Below, piece by piece: positions 301-60,585 of a stretch of 64,000 bases of DNA (position 1 is the stretch's first letter; each line of letters starts with the position of its first letter). A model generated the notes under the pieces. It had not been told where the DNA came from, searched no databases, and saw nothing but the letters and a program-made list of their open reading frames with translations. This DNA comes from Minisyncoccota bacterium. GTDB taxonomy: Bacteria; Patescibacteriota; Minisyncoccia; Phycocordibacterales; PALSA-1337. The stretch covers positions 22,384 through 86,383 of the forward strand of contig JBAZRG010000002.1 of assembly GCA_041663145.1 (NCBI GenBank). Reading direction: 5' to 3'. Both the position numbers and the translations under genes were made by a program.

Positions 301-436
301 TATTAAGGTAGTTCTTTGATATGCCAGTTACGTTCACCATAACAGAAAGCGTCTCAAAACTGAGGCATTTTCCGTTGTGGTGAACTGTAGTAACCACACA
401 TCAACAAAACAACGTATACGAAAGGTAATAACGATT

Positions 437-1123
437 ATGAAATCGATTACACCTGGTCAGATGGAACAGTTTGCTCGTTTTGTGACAGATGCTTCCGGTC
501 CAAGCACGAAGACGGCTCTTGAGCAGCTTCGCGACGACTGGGAATTCAGTCATGAAGGTCTTCAGCGCGCGCTCGGAAAAGGTAATCAGCTCAAATCCCG
601 CCTTATTCCGCTTCTCAAGGCCATGATCAAGGAAATGGCGACTAATATCCAAGGATGCGTGAAGCGCATCCTTGATGGAGAAGAGATCGCCATCGCCAAA
701 ACGAGCGGAAAGGAAAATCTCGCCCATGCCAAGGACGTTTTCACCGGTTGGGTTGATCCCGACTTCGTGAATTACGGCTGTGATGTGGAAGGGGAGCCTA
801 CCGCTCCGACACCTGTAGAGGTGTTCGAGATGGTGGAAAACGGCGACTTCGCGCGGATATTCGGTGGTTTCAATGTCAGCCTCGATCAGCTGCGTCTTTC
901 ACAGCACCAGATCAAGGCTTTCGCAAGGGATCACCGTGATAAGCTCCGCACGGAAGGATACGGGACCTTCTTCCTGTTCAAGGTTGGCGAAGAGTTCTTC
1001 GTTGCGTACGTGCACTTCTACGGCGGCGGGCGGCTCCGGGTCTACGTGCACCGCTTCTCGGACGTCAACGTCTGGGGCGCCGAGCGCCGTCATCGCGTCG
1101 TGCTCCCGAAACTGAACCAGTAG
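437..1123 (+). CDS. DGR target protein; the C-terminal about 40 aa are encoded by the variable repeat
   Basis: ORF 377..1123; the likely true start is the ATG at 437 (MKSITPGQ), which has an upstream AAGG. The gene is GC-richer than its surroundings. Its 3' 119 bp is an adenine-mismatch copy of the downstream template repeat. The fold is not recognisable from sequence; DGR targets are usually C-type-lectin-like. Confidence 0.7.
   Translation: MKSITPGQMEQFARFVTDASGPSTKTALEQLRDDWEFSHEGLQRALGKGNQLKSRLIPLLKAMIKEMATNIQGCVKRILDGEEIAIAKTSGKENLAHAKDVFTGWVDPDFVNYGCDVEGEPTAPTPVEVFEMVENGDFARIFGGFNVSLDQLRLSQHQIKAFARDHRDKLRTEGYGTFFLFKVGEEFFVAYVHFYGGGRLRVYVHRFSDVNVWGAERRHRVVLPKLNQ
996..1114 (+). repeat. 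DGR variable repeat (VR)
   Basis: 119 nt aligned without gaps to 1482-1600. There are 18 mismatches, every one at a position where the TR has A (VR has T, C or G). There are no mismatches at TR C, G or T positions. Confidence 0.9.
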
Positions 1124-1481
1124 GTTCACCTACTGGGTGGCACTTGCAAATTAGCCTTGAGCCTTTGGCTCTCAGTCCCTCTGATCCTTGTCAAAATTTA
1201 TTTTGGCAAATCAGGGGGATTTTTTGATTGAGCACAATCACCTACTGGGTTATACTGGAATGGCACGCATGAACGTACGGTGGCTATGGCTCCTGTGCCA
1301 CGCTTGTGAAGAAATACGTTCGGGAGTTCTGCTGGATATGTCTTGCAGAAGAGTGGATGTATTATTATCTAAACAAAAAATAATCAGTTGGTGTAGCGAA
1401 CTGGAGGACTTCAAGGTCCCGAATACTATTCAATTTGTCCTGATTGGGCGGGTGGTGTACTGGATGGTCCGCTACACATTA

Positions 1482-1600
1482 TCTTCGTTGCGAACGTGAA
1501 CTTCAACGACGACGGGCAGCTCAAGGTCAACGTGAACCGCTTCTCGAACGACAACGTCTGGAACGCCGAGAACCGTCATCGCATCGTGATCCCGAAACTG
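1482..1600 (+). repeat. DGR template repeat (TR)
   Basis: Invariant partner of the VR. Read in the VR frame it is rich in AAC codons (aac ttc aac gac gac ... aac gtg aac ... aac gac aac ... aac gcc gag aac), the classic DGR design that allows diversification without stop codons. The six-frame ORF 1496..1765 is this TR read in frame and is not a gene. Confidence 0.9.
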
Positions 1601-1615
1601 CAATTTCTCTCATCA

Positions 1616-1984
1616 TTATTTGGTGAGAGTTTTGTTGAGTGTCGATTTAGCAGACGGACTTTGAAGGCCTTTGCGCCATCCACCAAGCATCCGTCCTATT
1701 TCTTCGAGCTTTTCCGAGAGTTCTGTATATTTGTCAGTCGGCATGAGCTTGCTCTCCCATGCTAGTTGATAAAAGAATTTAAGAGTATCTACCTTCGTTA
1801 TTGTTCGACCAAGCATTACCGTTTTGGTTTCTGGTGGTAGATATATGCAAGAAAAACTAAATTCCAAAGTATCTAAGAATAAATCCTCGATCTTTTGCCC
1901 GATGCCGAGTCGTTCGACCCTCGGAAAGTTCCTATGAATAGTTAACCAAAACTGATATGCTTCTTTTTCCTTTAAAATTACCAC
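1616..1984 (-). CDS. avd: DGR accessory variability determinant (Avd), a four-helix-bundle protein
   Basis: 122 aa. The C-terminal ...LSEKLEEIGRMLGGWRKGLQ matches the Avd-type EVGRILGSWI ending, and the N-terminal EAYQFWLTIHRNFPRVERLG matches the Avd/23S-IVS-protein helix 1. It lies between the TR and the RT, but on the opposite strand. Confidence 0.7.
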   Translation of the reverse strand: MVILKEKEAYQFWLTIHRNFPRVERLGIGQKIEDLFLDTLEFSFSCIYLPPETKTVMLGRTITKVDTLKFFYQLAWESKLMPTDKYTELSEKLEEIGRMLGGWRKGLQSPSAKSTLNKTLTK

Positions 1985-2024
1985 TGGAGAATTGCGGGGG
2001 GGGGGTCGTTATAGTCATTTTATT

Positions 2025-3021
2025 TATGAAAAATAATGGGGTTTCGTACAACCATATCATATCTCTTAAAAATATCCACGAAGCGTGGCGCGAATTTGTC
2101 TCGGGCAAAAAATACAAAAAAGATGTCGCTGAATTTCTGCTCAGACTTTCGGAGAATACATATAAACTCCACACTGATCTGAAAAATAAAATATATGTTC
2201 ATGGACCGTACGAAGCGTTTGCTGTTAATGATCCAAAACCGCGCAGCATCCATAAAGCAAGCGTGCGGGACCGCTTACTCCACCACGCCCTCTATCGACA
2301 ACTCTACCCGTACTTTGATCAGAAGTTTATTCATGATTCCTATTCTTGCCGTGATTTTAAGGGAACACATCGGGCATTGGACCGTTTTATGCAATTTGCC
2401 CGCAAGGTTTCGAAGAGCAATAAACGCACCTGCTGGGTGTTGAAATGTGACATACGCAAATTCTTTGCTTCAGTTGACCATTCAGTCCTCATGGCAATAC
2501 TTAAAAAGCATGTCTCTGATTCTGATATTATCCGCCTTGTTGGTGGGGTAGTGGAGAGTTTTAAAAGTACTGGTCCAGGAAAGGGATTGCCGCTCGGTAA
2601 TCTCACGTCACAACTCCTTGTAAATGTTTATATGAATGAGTTTGACCAATATGTAAAGCATGTCCTCAAACAGGAGTTCTATATCCGTTACGCTGATGAT
2701 TTTGTGATTATGCATCACGATCGCAAGGCTTTGCTCGAGGTATTGCCGAAGATTGAAACCTTTCTTGAATCAATTCTTAAACTACAGCTTCATCCTGATA
2801 AGGTTTCTATCGAGACAGTTTCATCCGGTGTTGATTTTCTTGGTTGGGTGCATTTTCCGACTCATCGTGTACTTAGGACAAAGACAAAGAAGAGAATGTT
2901 TACAAGAATTGAAGATTCACAAGGAAAGGAAGAAGTAGTATGTTCATATCTCGGTATGTTAAAGCATGGGAATTGCAAAAAATTGAAGTGCAGGGTCATG
3001 AAATTGACAATCACAATCTAA
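2025..3021 (+). CDS. DGR reverse transcriptase
   Basis: RT motifs are present: RSIHKASVRDRLLHHAL (motifs 1-2), the DGR-specific GLPLGNLTSQLLVNVYMNEFD (motif 4 I/LGNxxSQ), and YADD in YIRYADDFVIMH (motif 5). The size of about 330 aa is typical of a DGR RT. The start is taken at ATG 2025 (MKNNGVSYNHI...); the six-frame ORF extends upstream to 1957. Confidence 0.9.
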
Positions 3022-3030
3022 TTTATCGTA

Positions 3031-3185
3031 GGAGCTTGGTGAATATTGTGTATTTGCTCCTCGCAATGCGATTTGAACCCCGAACAAATTGCCCATATTA
3101 GAGTAGCTCCGTCTACTCTAATATGGTTGCAATTTGGAGTGGGTGACCTTGCGAGGAGCAAATACACAATATTCACCAAGCTCCT
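3031..3185. repeat. Element A copy 1: a 36-bp outer inverted repeat enclosing a conserved ~85-nt core with an internal 14-bp hairpin
   Basis: The arm 3031-3066 (ggagcttggtgaatattgtgtatttgctcctcgcaa) is the reverse complement of 3150-3185. The core tgcgatttgaaccccgaacaaattgcccatattagagtagctccgtctactctaatatggttgcaatttggagtgggtgacc is nearly identical to the core at 44100-44190. Confidence 0.7.
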
Positions 3186-3237
3186 GTAGACTCTATGCAC
3201 AGTGACTCGCGCTTGAATTAGCGATACAATTGACTCA

Positions 3238-12147: not shown

Positions 12148-13931
12148 TAACTTTCAGGAAGGTGCGTGGTATACTCTTTTGCGTGAAATATAAGATTCGC
12201 CGACCACTACTACTCGATGAACAAAATGCTTTTGCTGGGCATTCCAATCTGCTGTCACATCTATTATTCCATAGAGGAGTAGTATCGAGTGATATGGCGC
12301 GTGAGTTTATTCTTCCTGATTTCGCATCCGGCACTCACGATCCTTTTTTATTAAAAGATGCCCGTAAATCGGCAGAGCGTGTTGTTCAAGCAATAGAAAG
12401 TGATGAACGTATAGCCATATACTCGGACTATGATGCTGACGGTATTCCTGGCGCCGCGATATTTCATGATTTTTTCAAAAGGATTGGCTTTAAAAATTTT
12501 TCCATATACATACCTCATCGCCACGATGAAGGATTTGGGGTTAATAGCGAAGCTGTTCGACAATTGATAGATGAAGGCGTAAAACTGCTCATCACTCTGG
12601 ATTGCGGAATCACTGATGTTTTGCCTGTGAAGTTGGCAAAGGAAAATGGTATAGACGTTATCATCACGGATCACCATGAACCACCCGATGCATTGCCTCC
12701 AGCTTTTGGAATCATCGATCACAAACAAAAAGATTGTGAATATCCCGATAAGAATCTTTGCGGTTCGGGGGTTGCATACAAATTGATCCAAGCTATCCTC
12801 AAGATCAATCGTTTCGGACTCAAAGAGGGGATGGAGAAATGGTTTTTGGATCTAGTAGGTATAGCGACCTTGTCTGACATGGTCCCGCTCGTCGGTGAAA
12901 ATAGAATATTCGCAAAGTATGGTTTGGCTGTCCTCGGGAAAAGCCAGAGAAAAGGACTAGTTCAACTTTTTCGTAAATTGAAAATATCACAAAAAGATGT
13001 TACTGAGGACGATATCGTCTTTATGGTAACACCTAGGATCAATGCCGCATCGAGAATGGGAGTTCCGATGGACGCATTTCACATGCTGGTGGCAGAGGAC
13101 GAGGATGAAGCATATTCTGCTGTTGAACATCTGGATACCATCAACAATGAACGTAAAGGAGTCGTAGCTTCATTAGTCAAAGAAGTAAAAAAGATATTAC
13201 GAGAACGGCACATGGGTTCTATTCCCGGTGCCATTGTGCTCGGTAATCCTTTGTGGCGTCCAGCCCTACTAGGTCTAGTGGCAAATTCATGTGCCGAGGA
13301 ATTCAGACGACCGGTATTTCTCTGGGGGCGTGATGGAGAAAACATGATTAAAGGATCATGTCGTTCCGAAGGTACTTCGAGTGTTGTCGAGATCATGCGG
13401 ACTGCTTCTACTGGTACGTTTTCACAATTTGGTGGACATCATCATTCTGGTGGTTTTGCTGTGGCGAATGATCAGATCCATTTCCTAGAACAAAAGTTAA
13501 ATGAAGCTGTTGAAATGATAAAATCTCAAAGACAAACAGGTGGTGATACAGCGAAAGATGGAATTCAAGAAGATAAGATAGAAGATTTTATGGTTGATGC
13601 TGAATTGAAATTGGATGATATCAACATCGGTTTGTTTAATGACATCGATAAATTGGCTCCGTTTGGCATGGCAAATCCCAAGCCGATTTTCATATTCCGT
13701 AATATATTACCCATTTCTATAAAGAAGTTTGGAAAAACCAAGGATCATGTCGAACTCATTTTCAATAAAAAAGACGGCAGTAAAGTCTCGGCTATTTCAT
13801 TTTTTGGTGCGACAAAAGATTGGGCGGAAAAGATACGGGAGAATGTCAGGATAGATCTGATCGCAACTCTGGAAAGGTCACTGTTTAAAGGTAGACCGGA
13901 ATTGCGTCTCCGTGTTGTCGATATAATATGA
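12144..13931 (+). CDS. recJ: Single-stranded-DNA-specific exonuclease RecJ (DHH/DHHA1 phosphoesterase)
   Basis: The DHH motif ITDHHEP, AIYSDYDADGI and the DHHA1 region are present. The start codon is uncertain and may be a non-ATG start upstream of ...LLSHLLFHRGV. Confidence 0.8.
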   Translation: MITFRKVRGILFCVKYKIRRPLLLDEQNAFAGHSNLLSHLLFHRGVVSSDMAREFILPDFASGTHDPFLLKDARKSAERVVQAIESDERIAIYSDYDADGIPGAAIFHDFFKRIGFKNFSIYIPHRHDEGFGVNSEAVRQLIDEGVKLLITLDCGITDVLPVKLAKENGIDVIITDHHEPPDALPPAFGIIDHKQKDCEYPDKNLCGSGVAYKLIQAILKINRFGLKEGMEKWFLDLVGIATLSDMVPLVGENRIFAKYGLAVLGKSQRKGLVQLFRKLKISQKDVTEDDIVFMVTPRINAASRMGVPMDAFHMLVAEDEDEAYSAVEHLDTINNERKGVVASLVKEVKKILRERHMGSIPGAIVLGNPLWRPALLGLVANSCAEEFRRPVFLWGRDGENMIKGSCRSEGTSSVVEIMRTASTGTFSQFGGHHHSGGFAVANDQIHFLEQKLNEAVEMIKSQRQTGGDTAKDGIQEDKIEDFMVDAELKLDDINIGLFNDIDKLAPFGMANPKPIFIFRNILPISIKKFGKTKDHVELIFNKKDGSKVSAISFFGATKDWAEKIRENVRIDLIATLERSLFKGRPELRLRVVDII

Positions 13932-13944
13932 TATTGTATTCTCT

Positions 13945-14673
13945 ATGAATCCAGCTTCAAACATCACTATATTTACCGATGGATCCTCACGTGGCAATCC
14001 TGGTCCTGGGGGATGGGGTGCCATTATCGTAGATAAAAAAGAAGATCAAAATAAATCTCACATTCGAGAGATTGGAGGCTCGGAGAAAAATACGACGAAT
14101 AATAGAATGGAATTAACTGCAGTTTTACGTGCCATTGGAAGTACGGCAAATGAAACAGTCAGTACAGTTTATACAGATTCCTCGTATGTCATAAATGGAA
14201 TAACCAAGTGGATCCATGGCTGGAAAAGAAATGGTTGGCAGACAAAAGCCAAAGAAGATGTCCTGAATAAAGATCTATGGGAAGAATTGGATAGAAATAT
14301 AAATAATAAAAAAATATCTTGGAAATATGTCGGGGGACATGTCGGTATTGCTGGAAATGAACGTTGTGATCTAATAGCGACCGGTTTCGCCGATGGTATC
14401 AAAGTCGATCTGTATGACGGCCCTTTGACTGGATATAAGGATAAAAATATTCTGAATATATCACTCGATCATACTAAAGCCACAGATAAAAAATCCAAGT
14501 CCAATCGTTCCAAAGCCAAAGCTTATTCATATATAAGTAGCATAAACGGTAAGATTGAAATCCATAAAAGTTGGCCGGAATGTGAAAAGAGAGTTAAGGG
14601 TGCAAGAGGAGCTAGATATAAAAAGGCATTGAGTCCACTAGAGGAGGCTGAAATTGTTGATGAATTTAAATAA
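13945..14673 (+). CDS. rnhA: Ribonuclease HI with a C-terminal basic extension
   Basis: Motifs TDGSSRGNPGPGGWGAII, NNRMELTAV and YTDSSYVINGITKWIHGWKRNGW are present. Confidence 0.85.
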   Translation: MNPASNITIFTDGSSRGNPGPGGWGAIIVDKKEDQNKSHIREIGGSEKNTTNNRMELTAVLRAIGSTANETVSTVYTDSSYVINGITKWIHGWKRNGWQTKAKEDVLNKDLWEELDRNINNKKISWKYVGGHVGIAGNERCDLIATGFADGIKVDLYDGPLTGYKDKNILNISLDHTKATDKKSKSNRSKAKAYSYISSINGKIEIHKSWPECEKRVKGARGARYKKALSPLEEAEIVDEFK

Positions 14674-14782
14674 CCAAAGAACCTCCCAGAAATAACTTCC
14701 CTCCCGTCTCCTGCGGGCGCTAATCGCTGGCTACCCATCCTCGGAGCACGGGAGGGAAGTTATTTCTGGGAGGTTCTTTGGT
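14672..14782. repeat. Element B copy 1: a 36-bp perfect inverted repeat enclosing a conserved 39-nt loop (cctgcgggcgct...atcctcgg)
   Basis: The arm 14672-14707 (aaccaaagaacctcccagaaataacttccctcccgt) is the reverse complement of 14747-14782. It overlaps the rnhA stop codon. Confidence 0.75.
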
Positions 14783-14836
14783 TAATTTAGACTTTCTTAA
14801 TCAGGATTTTAAGTTCCGCTTCTATAATGAACTCTC

Positions 14837-16464: not shown

Positions 16465-17589
16465 ATGGCAAACAGTAATCTCACAAACGCAAAAAGAGTA
16501 AAGAATGATGAGTTTTATACTCAGTACGGCGATATTCAAAAGGAGATTGAAGCGTATTTGGAATACGATGCAAATGTATTTCGTGGTAAGGTGGTCTATT
16601 GCAACTGCGATGATCCGTTCGAGAGCAATTTCTTTCGCTATTTTGTGCTCAATTTCAATAAGCTTGGATTGAAACAACTTATAACTACTAGCTATAAACC
16701 TTCACCTGTGGCCAACTCGCAATTGGGATTGTTTGGCGATGACAAGACTCTTACAAAAGCAAAAGGTCGTCCCAAGGTAACTGCCAATAAATTTATCATC
16801 AATGAAGTGCATGATGTGGACGGTGACGGCGAGTTCAATTTGAAGGATATTGCGGAGCAGTTAAAGGCAAACAAACATAATGAATGGACACCGCTCGAAG
16901 GTGATGGTGATTTTCGGAGCGATGAATGTGTAGAACTACTCAAACAATCAGATATTGTCGTAACAAATCCGCCGTTCAGTTTGTTTCGGGAGTATGTTAA
17001 GCAACTCTTTGAGTATGATAAAAAGTTTGTGATTATTGGTAATATGAATACGATTACTGGCAAAGAAATATTCCCGCTAATTAAAAATAATAAATTGTGG
17101 TTAGGAAATGGTTTTCATGCTGGCAACGCTTATTTCTCTACTCCTTTTGCTAAAGAGTATGGAGAGGGAGTTTATATGCCCGAAACTGGTTTAGTAAAAT
17201 TTAGGAATGTTTGTTGGTTTACCAATCTCGACCATGGGCGTCGTCATCAACCGTTGCCACTCATGACAATAGAAGAAAATTTGAAATACAGTAAGCACAA
17301 AGAAATTAAGGGTAAAAAGACGTATGAAAAGTATGACAATTATGATGCTATAGAAGTACCGTTTACTGATGCCATACCAAGTGATTATGATGGAGTGATG
17401 GGTGTACCTATCAGCTTTTTGGATAAATACTCTCCCGAGCAATTTGAAATTTTAGGCAGTGATTATAATGTTAAAGAGGGATTACTTCCAAAATTAGTTA
17501 ATCAAAAATGGAAGGGTAAGTTAGATAGGGGTTATGTAAATGACAAAAGACTTTTTACTAGAATTTTCATTAAGCATAGAGAAAAATAA
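16465..17589 (+). CDS. N6-adenine-specific DNA methyltransferase
   Basis: Catalytic motif IV NPPF (SDIVVTNPPFSLFREY) and an N-terminal NDEFYTQ region typical of adenine MTases. Confidence 0.7.
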   Translation: MANSNLTNAKRVKNDEFYTQYGDIQKEIEAYLEYDANVFRGKVVYCNCDDPFESNFFRYFVLNFNKLGLKQLITTSYKPSPVANSQLGLFGDDKTLTKAKGRPKVTANKFIINEVHDVDGDGEFNLKDIAEQLKANKHNEWTPLEGDGDFRSDECVELLKQSDIVVTNPPFSLFREYVKQLFEYDKKFVIIGNMNTITGKEIFPLIKNNKLWLGNGFHAGNAYFSTPFAKEYGEGVYMPETGLVKFRNVCWFTNLDHGRRHQPLPLMTIEENLKYSKHKEIKGKKTYEKYDNYDAIEVPFTDAIPSDYDGVMGVPISFLDKYSPEQFEILGSDYNVKEGLLPKLVNQKWKGKLDRGYVNDKRLFTRIFIKHREK

Positions 17590-17591
17590 TC

Positions 17592-18053
17592 ATGGATGTT
17601 TTGATTACAATTATATTAACTTCCATTAGTATTTTTATCGGTATTGTTGCTGTTTATTATGCAAAAAGATCTGATGAGAATTTTAGAAGTCCAAAAATTG
17701 ATCTAGAATTATCTCCCGGTCATGAATCTTTCTATATAAGGAATGTCGGAACAGATATAGCTTTGGGTTTAAAAGAAAATACAAATTATTTTAGAGATAT
17801 CCCTGATAGATTATGGAATTTCACTGGCCCAATTGATTATATGCGTACAAAGAATTATAGTGTGTCGAAATTTATAACCTTTCATGATAGTAAAATGCCA
17901 GCACCATCAAGCTCTGTTCTTGTCAATTTTGAATATCAAAATACAGATGGAATTAAATTCTATTCACATATAGAAGTGAAACGAGGAACTCCTACTCAGC
18001 AATTATATTTTACAGATTCTCGATTATTAAAATGGGGAAAATTGAAGAAATAA
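17592..18053 (+). CDS. Hypothetical membrane-anchored protein (operon partner of the MTase)
   Basis: 153 aa with an N-terminal TM helix. Its start lies 2 nt after the MTase stop. Confidence 0.45.
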   Translation: MDVLITIILTSISIFIGIVAVYYAKRSDENFRSPKIDLELSPGHESFYIRNVGTDIALGLKENTNYFRDIPDRLWNFTGPIDYMRTKNYSVSKFITFHDSKMPAPSSSVLVNFEYQNTDGIKFYSHIEVKRGTPTQQLYFTDSRLLKWGKLKK

Positions 18054-18054
18054 C

Positions 18055-18906
18055 ATGAAAAGACAACAATCACATAAAGATACCTTGCTGACTGTCTTTG
18101 AAAAAACGAGTATTCGCAAGATTTGGCATGACGAGCAATGGTACTTTTCTGTGATTGATATCATATCCGCACTTGATGTGACGGGACGCGAGCCGAGAAA
18201 GTATTGGTCAGATCTGAAGCAAAAGTTGATAACAGAAGGATATGTTGAAGTGTCCGAAAAAATCGGACAGTTGAAACTGCAAGCGGAGGACGGCAAGATA
18301 CGAGAGACAGACGTTGCTAATATGGAGACTGTTTTGCGTATTATTCAATCAGTGCCTTCGTCAAAAGCCGAGCCGCTCAAAAGATGGCTTGCAAAAGTCG
18401 GAACAGAACGAATCGTGGAAATTCAAGATCCGGCACTTGGCGTTAATCGCGCACGAGAACTTTGGAAGAAACATGGTCGAAGCGATAAATGGATTCAACA
18501 GAGAATGATGGGGCAAGAGACTAGGAATAAGCTCACCGATTATTGGAAAGAAGCAGGAGTAAAAGAGGGTGATGAATACGCTATACTTACAAATATCATC
18601 CATCAGGAATGGGCTGATATATCCGTATCAGATCACAAGTTGCTAAAAAATCTTGGCAAAACACATAATTTACGAGATCATATGAACGAGGCGGAATTGA
18701 TTCTGACTGCACTCGCTGAACTCTCCACCAGACAGATTGCCTCGAGTATGCAAGCCAAAGGATTTGTAGAGAACCAGATACCGGCTAAAAAGGGTGGAAA
18801 GATTGCCAAAGACGCTCGAAAATCACTTGAAGAGAAGACGGGAAAGCCGGTTATTACTGGGGCAAATTATTTACCAAATAAACAGTCCATAAGAAAATTA
18901 AAATAA
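18055..18906 (+). CDS. Bro-N domain protein (DinD / phage antirepressor-like)
   Basis: The Bro-N core is IRKIWHDEQWYFSVIDIISAL. The start lies 1 nt after the upstream stop. Confidence 0.55.
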   Translation: MKRQQSHKDTLLTVFEKTSIRKIWHDEQWYFSVIDIISALDVTGREPRKYWSDLKQKLITEGYVEVSEKIGQLKLQAEDGKIRETDVANMETVLRIIQSVPSSKAEPLKRWLAKVGTERIVEIQDPALGVNRARELWKKHGRSDKWIQQRMMGQETRNKLTDYWKEAGVKEGDEYAILTNIIHQEWADISVSDHKLLKNLGKTHNLRDHMNEAELILTALAELSTRQIASSMQAKGFVENQIPAKKGGKIAKDARKSLEEKTGKPVITGANYLPNKQSIRKLK

Positions 18907-18907
18907 G

Positions 18908-20074
18908 ATGAAAACAATCCTAAGAACTGAAATAACTGTTAAAGATATTTGTGAAGGGTTTGTCTATAATGAACTGGAAGGTAAAGGTTTGTTTGGCTTA
19001 TCTGGTAATCTCACTATTCAACCAGAGTATCAACGTAACTACATATATGCATCTGATGGTGGAAAAAGAGAGGTTGCTGTTATTGAGTCAATACTCAAAA
19101 GTTACCCAATAGGTTTGATTTATTTTAATAAAGTAGATGAGGAAAAATTTGAAGTCTTGGACGGGCAACAGCGTATCACTAGCGTCGGACGTTTTGTAAC
19201 TGGAAAATTTGCCATTCGAGATGAGAATGGGATGCAATATTTTGAGGCTATGGCAGGAGACAAAAAAGATAAGATTTTGGAAACTAAGCTGCTCATTTAT
19301 GAATGTGAAGGTACCGAAAGCCAAATAAAAGAGTGGTTTAAGACAATCAACATAGCCGGAGTTCCGCTGGTCCCTCAAGAATTGTTAAATGCGATTTATT
19401 CAGGACCATTTGTTACATTAGGTAAAGAAGAGTTTAGCAATAGTCAGAATGCTAATATTCAAAAATGGAGTGCGTATATAAAAGGAAGTGCAAACAGACA
19501 AGCATTTTTTGAGAGAGCTCTGGACTGGGTGAGTAGGGGAAATATCGATGATTATATGAGTATTCATCGCAACGACAAAAATATCAATGAGCTAAAAAAA
19601 TATTTCAACAGCGTGATTGATTGGATCTCTAGTGTATTTACCGACGTAGAAAGCGAGATGTGCGGTCTTGAATGGGGTAGACTATATGAGGAGTATCATA
19701 AGAAGGCTTATGACCCCAAGAGAGTGTCAGTCGAAGTTCGTAAACTTTATGGTGATTCGTACATCAGAAATCGCAAAGGTATTTTTGAGTATATTCTCGG
19801 TGGTTCAATCGATTCAAAATTACTTGAAGTCCGAATCTTTGATGAAGCAGATAAAAAAACTGTCTATTTAACACAAACTGCCAAAGCAGAGAAAAAAGGT
19901 GAATCAAATTGTCCACTTTGTGCTGTTGGACATGATGCCAACAAGGAAAAGATTTGGACTCTAGGTGATATGGATGCCGACCATGTAGCTGCTTGGAGCA
20001 AGGGTGGTAAGACAACGATAAAAAATTGTGAGATGTTGTGTAAGACGCATAATAGAGCGAAAGGTAATCGGTAA
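18908..20074 (+). CDS. GmrSD-like type IV (modification-dependent) restriction endonuclease: DUF262 ParB-like NTPase/nuclease plus a C-terminal HNH/DUF1524 nuclease
   Basis: The DUF262 motif DGQQRIT is present. The C-terminus carries CPLC...H..., DADHVAAWSKGG and CKTHNRAKGN, an HNH-like set of residues. Confidence 0.7.
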   Translation: MKTILRTEITVKDICEGFVYNELEGKGLFGLSGNLTIQPEYQRNYIYASDGGKREVAVIESILKSYPIGLIYFNKVDEEKFEVLDGQQRITSVGRFVTGKFAIRDENGMQYFEAMAGDKKDKILETKLLIYECEGTESQIKEWFKTINIAGVPLVPQELLNAIYSGPFVTLGKEEFSNSQNANIQKWSAYIKGSANRQAFFERALDWVSRGNIDDYMSIHRNDKNINELKKYFNSVIDWISSVFTDVESEMCGLEWGRLYEEYHKKAYDPKRVSVEVRKLYGDSYIRNRKGIFEYILGGSIDSKLLEVRIFDEADKKTVYLTQTAKAEKKGESNCPLCAVGHDANKEKIWTLGDMDADHVAAWSKGGKTTIKNCEMLCKTHNRAKGNR

Positions 20075-28361: not shown

Positions 28362-28372
28362 TAGAACCGTAA

Positions 28373-28472
28373 ACCCCACGCGACATAACAACATCCCTCC
28401 GTACACCTGCGGGCGCTTACGCTAAGCACAATCCTCGGTGTACGGAGGGATGTTGTTATGTCGCGTGGGGTT
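28373..28472. repeat. Element B copy 2: a 34-bp perfect inverted repeat enclosing a conserved loop (cctgcgggcgcttacgctaagcacaatcctcgg)
   Basis: 28373-28406 is the reverse complement of 28439-28472. The loop shares cctgcgggcgct and atcctcgg with copy 1. It lies immediately after the fusA stop. Confidence 0.75.
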
Positions 28473-43819: not shown

Positions 43820-43858
43820 ATTCGCTCTGATTTGAATAGATTTATAACGTAACCCCCC

Positions 43859-44007
43859 TTGCATCCTCGTTTTTCATCCTCGAACTCTACTCACAATATA
43901 CCAACATTTTCACAAAGGATGCGTTACAAGGATTCGCGCATCCTTTGGAAAATGTATTGGTATATTGTTTCGCAGATTATTCTCGGAAGAAAAACGAGGA
44001 TGCAAGG
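43859..44007. repeat. Nested palindromic structure: an 18-bp perfect outer inverted repeat enclosing a ~70-nt imperfect hairpin
   Basis: cttgcatcctcgtttttc at 43859-43876 is the reverse complement of 43990-44007. The inner acaatataccaacattttcacaaaggatgcg pairs with cgcatcctttggaaaatgtattggtatattgt. Confidence 0.6.
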
Positions 44008-44068
44008 AGTGTTACGTAAAATCTTCATATTCACGTCCATGACTACTTTTGTAAAATTTCAGCTCCTC

Positions 44069-44220
44069 GAGCTCGGTGAATATTGTTCGGAAACGACTCG
44101 CAATGCGATTTGAACCCCGAACAAATTGCCCATATCTGAGTAGTTCCATCTACTCAAATATGGATGCAATTTGGAGTGGGTGACCTTGCGTGTCGTTTCC
44201 GAACAATGTTCACCGAGCTC
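44069..44220. repeat. Element A copy 2 (outer 35-bp inverted repeat plus conserved core)
   Basis: gagctcggtgaatattgttcggaaacgactcgcaa (44069-44103) is the reverse complement of 44186-44220. The core at 44104-44185 matches the 3067-3149 core at most positions. The variable stem segment differs from copy 1 but stays self-complementary. Confidence 0.75.
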
Positions 44221-44297
44221 TTTCTTTTCTTGACTTCAAAGTGTGGCTCTGTTAACATGCAACGACTGCTCCGCGGAGCTGTTTTAGTTAATCTTAC

Positions 44298-44648
44298 ATG
44301 TCAAGATCACTCAAGAAAGGTCCATATGTCGACGAAAATCTTATCAAAAAGATTTCGGGTAAAAAGCCGGCTCAAACTGGTACTATAAAAACATGGGCAC
44401 GTCGTTCTCAAATCTCACCTGAAATGGTGGGCTTTACTTTTGGTGTTCACAATGGACGCAATCATCTAGATGTATTTGTAACCGAGGACATGGTAGGACA
44501 CCGCCTCGGTGAATTTTCGCCTACAAAGAAATTCATCCGACATGGAGGTAAGATGCAAAAGGAGATCGAACTCAAGGCTAAAGAAGCAGAGATGGCCGCA
44601 GCCAAATCCGCCAAGGAAGCCGCTACAACAGCAGCTACAAAGAAATAA
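44298..44648 (+). CDS. rpsS: 30S ribosomal protein S19 with a Lys/Ala-rich C-terminal extension
   Basis: [15 protein letters not shown]..., [12 protein letters not shown]..., HRLGEF. Confidence 0.95.
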
Positions 44649-55007: not shown

Positions 55008-55042
55008 GGCGGCACCATAGTCCTCTAAAAACGATCGTGCGT

Positions 55043-55216
55043 AATCGCTTTTGAATAACAGGCACTAACAGAATGTTCCCAGAACAATCCGAGTATGCGA
55101 TTGAGCTTCGAAAAATTACCCGTGTTTGGTGAAGCCCTGGAACCAAACACGGTTGTAATTTGAGAAGCGATTACGCAGGATTGTGGCGGGAACATTCTGT
55201 TAGTGCCTGTTATGAT
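55043..55216. repeat. Complex interleaved inverted-repeat structure downstream of ndk (pseudoknot-like or alternative stems)
   Basis: Pair A: cgtgcgtaatcgcttt (55043-55058) with gaagcgattacgcagg (55165-55180). Pair B: tgaataacaggcactaacagaatgttccc (~55060-55090) with gggaacattctgttagtgcctgttatga (~55188-55216). There is an inner hairpin cgtgtttggt...ccaaacacgg. Confidence 0.55.
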
Positions 55217-55587
55217 TTAATCACGTATTCGGATTGTTTCCGAAGTATTGTGGTACTGCCTTACCCAAATTTAATCCTAAGATTTCATTACAACTTGCAG
55301 TAATTACTGAATAATGTCGCAACTACTTTTTCCTCTTGCGCTTCGAGATGAGAGTAATACAATTAAGACAGATTGCGAGAGTAAAATCCTACAAAATTTT
55401 TATTTTTGGAATGTCGACGAACAGGTAGAGCTGTTCAATTTCTTCCGCGATCTTTATGACGTTGGAAGCTAGATAACCCACCTGGAACACCAGGTATATT
55501 ACTCTCGCGATCTATGAAGCGCATCCCGATCTATACAGATACGGGGTGCTTTTCTATATTATCCATTATCACGTATAATTGAACACA

Positions 55588-60195: not shown

Positions 60196-60557
60196 GGGGA
60201 TGATCGGCATAGACAGTCTATGGTCTCCGTTCGTGCGGCGTGAGCACCGTTAACTCATAAATCTGACGGAAACTCTAAATGCTAAATCAACCGTTTCTCC
60301 GTATTTCGGAGCAAAGGACTTTAGTTTCGCTCTTGCTTAAAGAGCGCGTTCACCTCAGGGTATCCTAACCTGAGAATGGGCGTCATTATCTGGATGTAGG
60401 GCAGTGAAGTTTCTCGCTTCATTGTCTGAAATCATGAGATCGTGAATACGTGTTTTGTCTTCTTTCGAGCGTATTCATTAAACTTCAAAGAATTCTACCG
60501 CCGTAGAATCGTTCGGTTGATCTTGATTGCACCTGGGTTCGATTCCCAGCATCTCCA
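60196..60557 (+). ncRNA. ssrA: tmRNA (SsrA); the 3' CCA is not encoded
   Basis: The 5' GGGGAUGAUCGGCAUAGAC pairs with the 3' CAUCUCC plus the discriminator A. The T-arm is CUGGGUUCGAUUCCCAG (60531-60549). The internal tag reading frame is ...GCA AAG GAC TTT AGT TTC GCT CTT GCT TAA, giving ...AKDFSFALA*. It is adjacent to smpB. Confidence 0.8.
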
Positions 60558-60585
60558 CAAAAATAAGAAGCGTAGCGACTATATT

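Follow-up and report, generated by a model that had tools for sequence, protein, structure and literature searches.

How does a hairpin keep a long outer stem paired while the sequence of that stem is replaced, and does such pairing speak for an RNA or for a DNA element? The question is raised by Element A, a repeated intergenic element in a 64,000-nt stretch of the Minisyncoccota contig JBAZRG010000002.1 (positions 22,384 to 86,383; the whole stretch is called the window, and coordinates without a locus name refer to it). An earlier note on this sequence had listed two copies of about 150 nt and had read complementary differences between their arms as selection on structure, as in a structured non-coding RNA (ncRNA) or a hairpin-forming MITE (a miniature transposable element with inverted repeats). 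We find that the feature is real, lies far beyond chance and is larger than first reported. With moderate confidence, we take Element A to be a small, non-coding family of palindromic DNA, mobile or formerly mobile, that has spread in some Paceibacterota/Parcubacteria genomes, and it appears closest in kind to repeats of the REPIN, MITE and SPRITE type.

Element A is a family of hairpins with a conserved core and variable stems

A degenerate core pattern searched over the 64-kb window returned both listed copies and a third, divergent one that the earlier note had missed. The same pattern, scanned over 185,579 species genomes with one genome each, gave 23 loci, 22 of them chance matches and one genuine: positions 3816-3968 of L008, a locus from a Candidatus Parcubacteria metagenome-assembled genome (MAG; L numbers denote loci of other genomes). 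A covariance model (CM) built from these four members (A1, A2, A3 and L008) scores them at 77-124 bits. The copies in the window, with the parts of the first, are as follows.

3030-3185, plus strand: Element A copy 1 (A1), a complete hairpin; CM score 119 bits
3030-3066, plus strand: A1 outer stem P1, 5' arm, pairing with 3149-3185
3067-3094, plus strand: A1 5' half-core (the 'ring'), TGCGATTTGAACCCCGAACAAATTGCCC; 28/28 identical to A2, 27/28 to L008 and 22/28 to A3
3093-3126, plus strand: A1 apical hairpin P4, 14 bp (3093-3106/3113-3126) with a 6-nt loop
3126-3153, plus strand: A1 3' half-core, GTTGCAATTTGGAGTGGGTGACCTTGCG; 27/28 identical to A2 and 25/29 to L008
3149-3185, plus strand: A1 outer stem P1, 3' arm, 37 nt, 100% complementary to the 5' arm
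44069-44220, plus strand: Element A copy 2 (A2); CM score 118.5 bits; variable block 44087-44096 (tcggaaacga)
55031-55055, plus strand: solo half-core fragment of 25 nt, abutting A3; 84% complementary, as an inverted copy, to the A3 3' half-core 55160-55184
55055-55213, plus strand: Element A copy 3 (A3), divergent; CM score 76.6 bits, E 1e-18; -95.1 kcal/mol, z -12.1

A1 and A2 lie where the earlier note had placed them, and both are predicted to fold as single long hairpins (-100.9 kcal/mol, z = -17.6 for A1; -91.4 kcal/mol, z = -12.7 for A2, against shuffles). Their outer inverted repeat, put at ~35 bp before, measures 37 nt in A1 and 35 nt with 94% complementarity in A2 (44069-44103/44186-44220), and in both copies the arms enclose 82 nt. 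The core had been called nearly identical, and its 94-nt central part is indeed 94% identical between the two; a 31-nt core string occurs exactly twice in the window, against 0 expected in shuffles.

From the outside inward, the element consists of P1, with 35-37 bp; an asymmetric internal loop formed by TGCGATTTGA (5') and TGACC (3'); the weak helix P2, with 4-5 bp; an internal GAA/GA loop; P3 (CAAATTGC/GCAATTTG); a TT bulge; and P4, the 14-bp core hairpin of the earlier note, which across members has 11-14 bp and a loop of 6-12 nt. In A1, the 5' half-core includes P2 and the 5' strand of P3, with TGCGATTTGA and GAA unpaired, and the 3' half-core includes the TT bulge, P2 and the 3' strand of P3, with GA and TGACC unpaired. 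The two half-cores, of ~28 nt each, are imperfect inverted repeats of one another with conserved unpaired bases. The ring is 93-100% identical among A1, A2 and L008; P1 and P4 of L008 are unrelated in sequence to those of A1/A2. The GAA/GA loop and other unpaired nucleotides are conserved in all four members, even in the divergent A3, and P4 has been replaced in both L008 and A3 with its pairing retained.

The outer stem is itself a mosaic. The 5' arm of A1 begins with 18-20 terminal nucleotides in common with A2 (GAGCTYGGTGAATATTGT), continues with a 10-nt variable block at 3050-3059 (gtatttgctc) and ends in 7 core-proximal nucleotides again common to both copies (CTCGCAA, with TTGCGAG on the other arm). 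Nine of the 10 block positions differ between A1 and A2, and the 3' arm mirrors each change. The complementary replacement described earlier therefore holds for both arms, although the block is 10 nt long in both copies and the 12-nt strings given for it include conserved flanking bases.

A3 has the ring architecture of A1 inside an unrelated outer stem of 36 nt, and its P2, P3 and P4 are changed on both strands in a compensated manner; aligned with A1, its core reads tgcgatt-gagcttcgaa-aaattaccc ... ggttgtaatttgagaagc. The 25-nt fragment beside it probably survives from an older copy or from one that was rearranged. Copies measure 152-159 nt and have no open reading frame (ORF) of their own. 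A small ORF was considered and rejected: an ATG at the P4/ring junction runs into a stop after 7 codons in A1, and the equivalent ATG in A2 opens an unconserved ORF of 74 aa (44164-44388) that exits the element and overlaps the start of rpsS.

Compensatory changes support hairpin formation

Covariation was assessed on 36 pairs of the four-member alignment, with 500 shuffles and slid-partner controls. Fifteen of the 36 pairs are changed on both sides and 90.9% of the alignment cells are paired, values reached by 0/500 shuffles; with slid partners, pairing falls to 31-43%. Within P3/P4, 6/18 pairs are double-changed, and neither P1 nor P3/P4 shows one-sided variation, each change being a Watson-Crick pair swapped for another. 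The inner-hairpin difference pointed out in the earlier note is partly compensated in A2, as it had said, with an A-T to T-A exchange compensated and a T-A to C.A change broken. The same note had proposed looking among further copies for arms that mutate without compensation; the new copies, A3 and that of L008, keep their pairing, which favours a hairpin. We conclude that the compensatory changes support selection, or a mechanism, for hairpin formation. To that extent the earlier claim of selection on structure stands, but its extension to a structured ncRNA finds little support.

As we read it, covariation cannot separate an RNA from a palindromic DNA element, because DNA palindromes such as REPINs show it too (PMC3116915). 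The stem statistics lean toward DNA rather than RNA. In a census of 13 hairpin elements, ~97% of stem pairs are Watson-Crick, and the few G.T and A.C pairs in the long stems are about equal in frequency, so neither strand is favoured. A syntenic RNA candidate near A3, described below, offers a contrast, with G-U pairs and one-sided changes. The minus strand of A1, the one copy for which it was folded, folds equally well (-100.9 kcal/mol, z = -19.9). The core, by comparison, is asymmetric, since the CM scores 119-124 bits on the plus strand and 31-35 bits on the minus strand.

All copies lie between a stop codon and the next gene

Each copy occupies the space after a stop codon and before the gene that follows. 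In the window all three are in sense orientation, whereas the L008 copy is antisense to both neighbour genes. SecY of the window has a 100% match on a 187-kb contig of a Candidatus Paceibacterota MAG. A1 follows a DGR (diversity-generating retroelement), whose variable repeat (VR), template repeat (TR) and reverse transcriptase (RT) gene are placed as follows.

377-3021: complete DGR, comprising a target gene with VR at 996-1114, TR at 1482-1600, bAvd at 1616-1984 (minus strand) and RT at 1957-3021

The RT that copy 1 had been said to abut is genuine: it matches RVT_1, bAvd is adjacent, and 18/18 TR-to-VR differences fall at TR adenines. A1 starts 8 nt past the RT stop codon (3021); a promoter-like site of pilB (3202-3230), the -10 box of which is conserved in relatives, follows 17 nt after its end. 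Relatives with 88-90% PilB identity carry neither the DGR nor A1. A link between Element A and DGRs was rejected, since only A1 adjoins an RT and the DGRs of L036 have no such hairpin.

A2 comes after an HlyD-MacA-MacB block and a further long hairpin, C (43847-44017), and on its right side it stops 9 nt short of the -35 box of the rpsS promoter (44230-44258). This promoter, TTGACTTC-N10-GCTCTGTTAACATGC (TTGACT-17-TAACAT), is conserved in four genomes (window, L036, L040 and L041), so the S10 cluster is split there in this lineage. The earlier note had put A2 at the edge of an inserted block made of a histidine kinase and MacAB. HlyD-MacAB and A2 do vary between genomes, but the divergently transcribed kinase gene is also found between rplB and rpsS in relatives and therefore does not belong to a recent insertion. 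The stretch from the kinase gene to the rpsS promoter is a hot spot: L041 has nothing there (108 nt), L040 has an A-like element and a DUF1189 gene, and the window has HlyD-MacAB, C and A2. In L036, a locus that stops short of the kinase gene, a DGR RT lies directly upstream of the same rpsS promoter. This relative has two RT genes in its ribosomal-protein region, one at 13105-14109 between secY and adk and one at ~150-1000 that ends at the rpsS promoter and has a C-terminus resembling that of the window RT.

A3 lies 47 nt past the ndk stop codon, a slot that in L036 is occupied by a different hairpin (16597-16787). Separately, a candidate lineage-specific ncRNA of ~145 nt with several stems is found at 55370-55513, 160 nt downstream of A3, between ndk and a beta-CASP RNase gene. 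It is syntenic in three genomes, with counterparts at ~16880-17050 of L036 and ~13610-13760 of L040, shows G-U pairs and compensatory changes, and has no Rfam match.

Sister hairpins share the plan of Element A

Six long hairpins in three families occur in the window: A with three copies, B with two, and C. With a further family from relatives, the sister hairpins are:

14668-14787 and 28372-28472: hairpin family B (copies B1 and B2), after the RNase H and EF-G genes
43847-44017: hairpin C, between macB and rpsS, directly upstream of A2; 38-nt arms, -89.9 kcal/mol, z -16
L040 1637-1951 and L036 20296-20477: hairpin family D, with unrelated outer stems of ~31 bp (31-35 nt)

The B copies have in common a core, TGCGGGCGCT..ATCCTCGG, and a stem segment, CCCTCC(C)GT; they differ in unrelated outer stems and in an inner block of 4-5 bp that is replaced on both arms. 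Family D has a core of two hairpins, CACGATCGGCCKTGCTCGAAT...CTCGCAMGGCCGTCT. Both are built like A, with a conserved core, alternating conserved and replaced stem segments and a long perfect outer stem, and the plan of conserved core plus variable perfect stem is common to families B, C, D, E and others. No second copy of C was found. An AT-rich hairpin family is present in L040 and L048, and E is identical in three assemblies. The slot between the gene for a sigma-70-region-4 protein and DUF8128 carries a long hairpin in L008 (3816-3968), L050 (9855-9978) and L052 (9806-9974), each with a different core; in L050 and L052 it is the sole such hairpin of the 21-kb locus. Independent assemblies of an L036 relative break 10-30 nt into D and E (at the L038 end, 13642, and the L039 end, 7347); such elements therefore break short-read assemblies of MAGs from the candidate phyla radiation (CPR).

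L040 also carries a degenerate relative of Element A at 1637-1951, in opposite orientation and with a complete family D element nested inside. The A1/A2 terminal motif is present on both of its arms, and A1, taken as its reverse complement, aligns with the leftmost 50 nt of this element through the terminal motif, a variable block and CTCGCAA, and then GATCGCCATCTCTAA against GGTCACCCACTCCAA. The CM detected no further members in ~330 kb of relatives' loci, with filters off for L040 and L048. An independent pattern gave 12 loci in JGI metagenomes, all of them chance matches; IMG/VR scans with core and terminal patterns, and blastn of phage genomes, gave nothing. A guide-RNA role was rejected: viral contigs contain no exact match to the arms of the outer stems of A3, B1 and B2, and the arms have no second copy in the window. 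Full-text searching of the literature gave nothing specific on such elements in this phylum. To our knowledge, palindromic intergenic repeats of this kind have not been described in it.

A mobile palindromic DNA family is the favoured reading

The most economical reading is that the copies are non-autonomous, hairpin-forming repeats that occupy the small neutral space left after one gene's stop codon and before the promoter that follows. Element A is absent from the syntenic loci of relatives with 79-84% SecY or 88-91% PilB identity. Mobility is also supported by the differing orientations of the window copies, the L008 copy and the L040 relative, by the family D element nested in the last of these, by the solo half-core fragment beside A3 and by the assemblies that break within sister elements. 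Maintenance at the DNA level is argued by the perfect stems, by the block-wise complementary replacement between A1 and A2 amid ~94% identity, and by the nesting of elements. The hairpin would be required in single-stranded DNA (ssDNA), where either the host's own replication and repair or an enzyme with its gene elsewhere in the genome would copy or insert the element. Templated correction from arm to arm may keep the stems perfect while drift or exchange alters their sequence; other conceivable routes are fold-back copying and homing into hairpins already present. Once inserted and co-transcribed, the hairpin would probably act as a passive terminator, insulator or 3'-end protector, which we propose is why copies survive just upstream of promoters.

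Several observations weigh against such a family of mobile DNA. Insertion is read from absence in diverged relatives, none of which offered a precise empty site at nucleotide-level similarity. A screen of window ORFs of at least 122 aa and of the fetched loci of relatives found no transposase, RAYT or other HUH enzyme, integrase or recombinase and no Y1_Tnp-type match among the window ORFs, and no insertion sequence (IS) or transposase with Element A ends in the window or any fetched locus. Neither direct repeats nor target-site duplications flank A1, A2, A3 or the L008 copy (flanks cgt/gta, ctcctc/tttctt, tttgaa/gattta and gtagt/caaact, respectively), and the family as a whole lacks conserved termini, the reverse of an element recognised by a transposase. 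The slot hairpin found in three relatives could be needed there and not merely tolerated. Conserved unpaired nucleotides, including the GAA/GA of A3, argue for recognition of the fold, which fits ssDNA and RNA alike, and the 93-96% identity of the ring between two genomes counts as a further sign that a folded motif is recognised. Finally, only four or five members are known, which makes all statistics thin.

Among known systems, Element A resembles in logic, not in layout, the REPINs, mobile hairpins of DNA whose ends are conserved, whose spacer varies and in which compensatory changes are frequent (PMC3116915). Both have two conserved inverted regions around a less conserved spacer that retains pairing, the half-cores at 3067-3094 and 3126-3153 flanking P4 in A1; both are extragenic, lack target-site duplications and are predicted to act as hairpins in ssDNA or mRNA (PMC3116915). 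The conserved REP (repetitive extragenic palindromic) sequences of a REPIN are, however, its outer ends, whereas the halves of Element A are internal, enclosed by a variable perfect stem of 35-37 bp, and contain long asymmetric stretches that are unpaired. REPINs are doublets of REP sequences mobilised by RAYT/TnpA-REP transposases (Y1 HUH enzymes, usually with one RAYT gene per genome, flanked by REPs) and are typically numerous, with their conserved 16-mer over-represented in extragenic space. In the window there are 3 copies of Element A in 64 kb, a low number, and no RAYT gene was seen; the host belongs to the CPR. A second likeness is to the repetitive hairpin-forming elements (RHEs) and double-hairpin elements of mitochondria, which form several structurally divergent hairpin families that invade the intergenic regions of small, compact genomes and are scattered among close relatives, as are Element A and its sisters (PMC2800124); they live in an organelle, not a bacterium, and are shorter.

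Alternative explanations

The alternative that survives best, possible though tentative, is a cis-acting RNA hairpin module, retained because its ~36-bp duplex, once transcribed together with the upstream gene, would halt transcription or insulate it, serve as an RNase III substrate or hold off 3' exonucleases, with mobility as no more than its origin. It accounts directly for the position of the copies, A1 and A2 close before promoters and A3 after ndk, and for that of the sister hairpins, which begin -6 to 27 nt from a stop codon. The three of three relatives with a long hairpin in the sigma-like/DUF8128 slot also fit, as do the ordinary terminators of the clade, which are long perfect palindromes (L048 3149-3206 and 4684-4742; L045 7675-7715), and a near-symmetric hairpin would function in both orientations. 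A plain boundary hairpin would, however, have no use for a conserved asymmetric ring of 56 nt, L040 and L041 do without any hairpin at the ndk and rpsS slots, and the scarcity of G-U pairs is unusual for a helix selected as RNA. Nor do the copies look like terminators in detail: most lack a U-tract past the outer stem, a T-rich run following A2 alone, and no terminator-like site was found on the plus strand of A1, A2 or A3, with a weak minus-strand site at P4 only. MITE transcripts fold into stable stem-loops, and some families mimic terminators and can affect termination or mRNA stability (PMC10969869). Judged by that review's description, Element A is placed like the repeated hairpin elements found in terminator-like positions downstream of genes (PMC10969869), but it differs from them in its missing U-tract, much longer stem, conserved asymmetric internal core and unrelated sequence. 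An RNA boundary and a mobile DNA element are compatible, as later use and origin.

More doubtful is the idea that A and its sister families B, C, D and E make up an undescribed class of elements in which a dedicated protein recognises the folded asymmetric core in single-stranded nucleic acid and either the stems are remade at each copying event by fold-back synthesis or the element homes into the tips of existing hairpins. Either route would explain together the perfect hypervariable stems, the block-wise replacement between A1 and A2, and the nesting. In a more speculative variant, RNase III would turn the perfect duplexes into small RNAs, and their variable stem sequences would have targets.

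We consider it very unlikely that Element A is a stand-alone family of structured ncRNA genes, with the closing stem processed off and the internal loops binding a protein or target. The conserved unpaired nucleotides, the tandem G-A-type loop (GAA/GA) between covarying helices and the asymmetry of the core seen by the CM are what such a gene would show. Yet Rfam, which the earlier note had suggested checking, holds no match to Element A at gathering thresholds or at E-values up to 10; its sole matches are generic long-hairpin models, those of plant miRNA precursors, at 47 bits against a threshold of 144 bits. In no copy was a promoter-like site detected, either inside it or immediately upstream, the element lacks synteny and is missing from close relatives, the L008 copy is inconsistent in orientation with its neighbour genes, the stems are perfect with wobble pairs scarce, and exact-pattern scans of the 185,579 species genomes and the JGI metagenomes yielded one further member in total. 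An origin from a tRNA was rejected as well: ARAGORN finds only a tmRNA in the window and no tRNA-like gene at the element, and by direct inspection the T-arm-like string GGTTCAAATC on the minus strand has no complementary T-stem.

Less likely still is a classical MITE, that is, an IS deletion derivative with terminal inverted repeats bound by the IS transposase and with target-site duplications. This was the closer of the two options named in the earlier note. The general description of MITEs such as Correia/NEMIS, ERIC and QMITE, of ~100-200 bp, non-coding and intergenic with very stable stem-loop transcripts, fits an element of ~150 bp (PMC10969869), and the terminal motif GAGCTYGGTRAATAT is common to A1, A2 and the L040 element on both arms. 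MITEs are, however, defined by conserved terminal inverted repeats together with direct repeats, and the latter flank no copy here. The termini differ between A1/A2, A3 and L008, being wholly different in A3 and L008 around the same core, so that the middle is conserved and not the ends; an IS or transposase with such ends, as said, was not found in the window or fetched loci.

Integron attC sites are hairpins that follow cassette ORFs, with conserved structure and variable sequence. A recombination site of this kind, folding as ssDNA at the 3' end of mobile gene cassettes, is the least likely of all: Element A is likewise an imperfect palindrome directly after ORFs with structure conserved above sequence, A1 closes a DGR block missing upstream of pilB in relatives, A2 closes the variable HlyD-MacAB block and the L040 element borders the DUF1189 insertion in the same kinase-rpsS gap, but attC conserves its outer core sites and varies in the middle, the reverse of Element A, no integrase (among window ORFs), attI site or cassette array was found, RYYYAAC/GTTRRRY core sites were not seen at the element ends, A3, B1 and B2 follow the housekeeping genes ndk, RNase H and EF-G, and the L036 DGR is inserted at the rpsS promoter without such a hairpin.

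Other features of the window

The tmRNA gene lies at 60196-60560 (108 bits), encodes the tag peptide AKSTVSPYFGAKDFSFALA and adjoins smpB. A defence-like island at 16465-20074 contains an EcoRI-type adenine methyltransferase, a Bro-N domain protein and a GmrSD-N/HNH endonuclease.

Implications

Covariation within a near-palindrome is not evidence for an RNA gene, and Element A illustrates the need for caution. Its architecture is the inverse of a transposon with conserved ends, which points to a mechanism of recognition or copying that has not been worked out. CPR/Patescibacteria genomes, of ~1 Mb, are usually called streamlined and poor in repeats, yet six long hairpins occur in one 64-kb window, and relatives carry others, some nested and some within the ribosomal-protein gene cluster. 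If these elements are mobile, genome plasticity and assembly breaks in CPR MAGs would have in them a source that has gone unrecognised; should they serve as transcription boundaries, they would indicate how CPR organisms delimit their operons.

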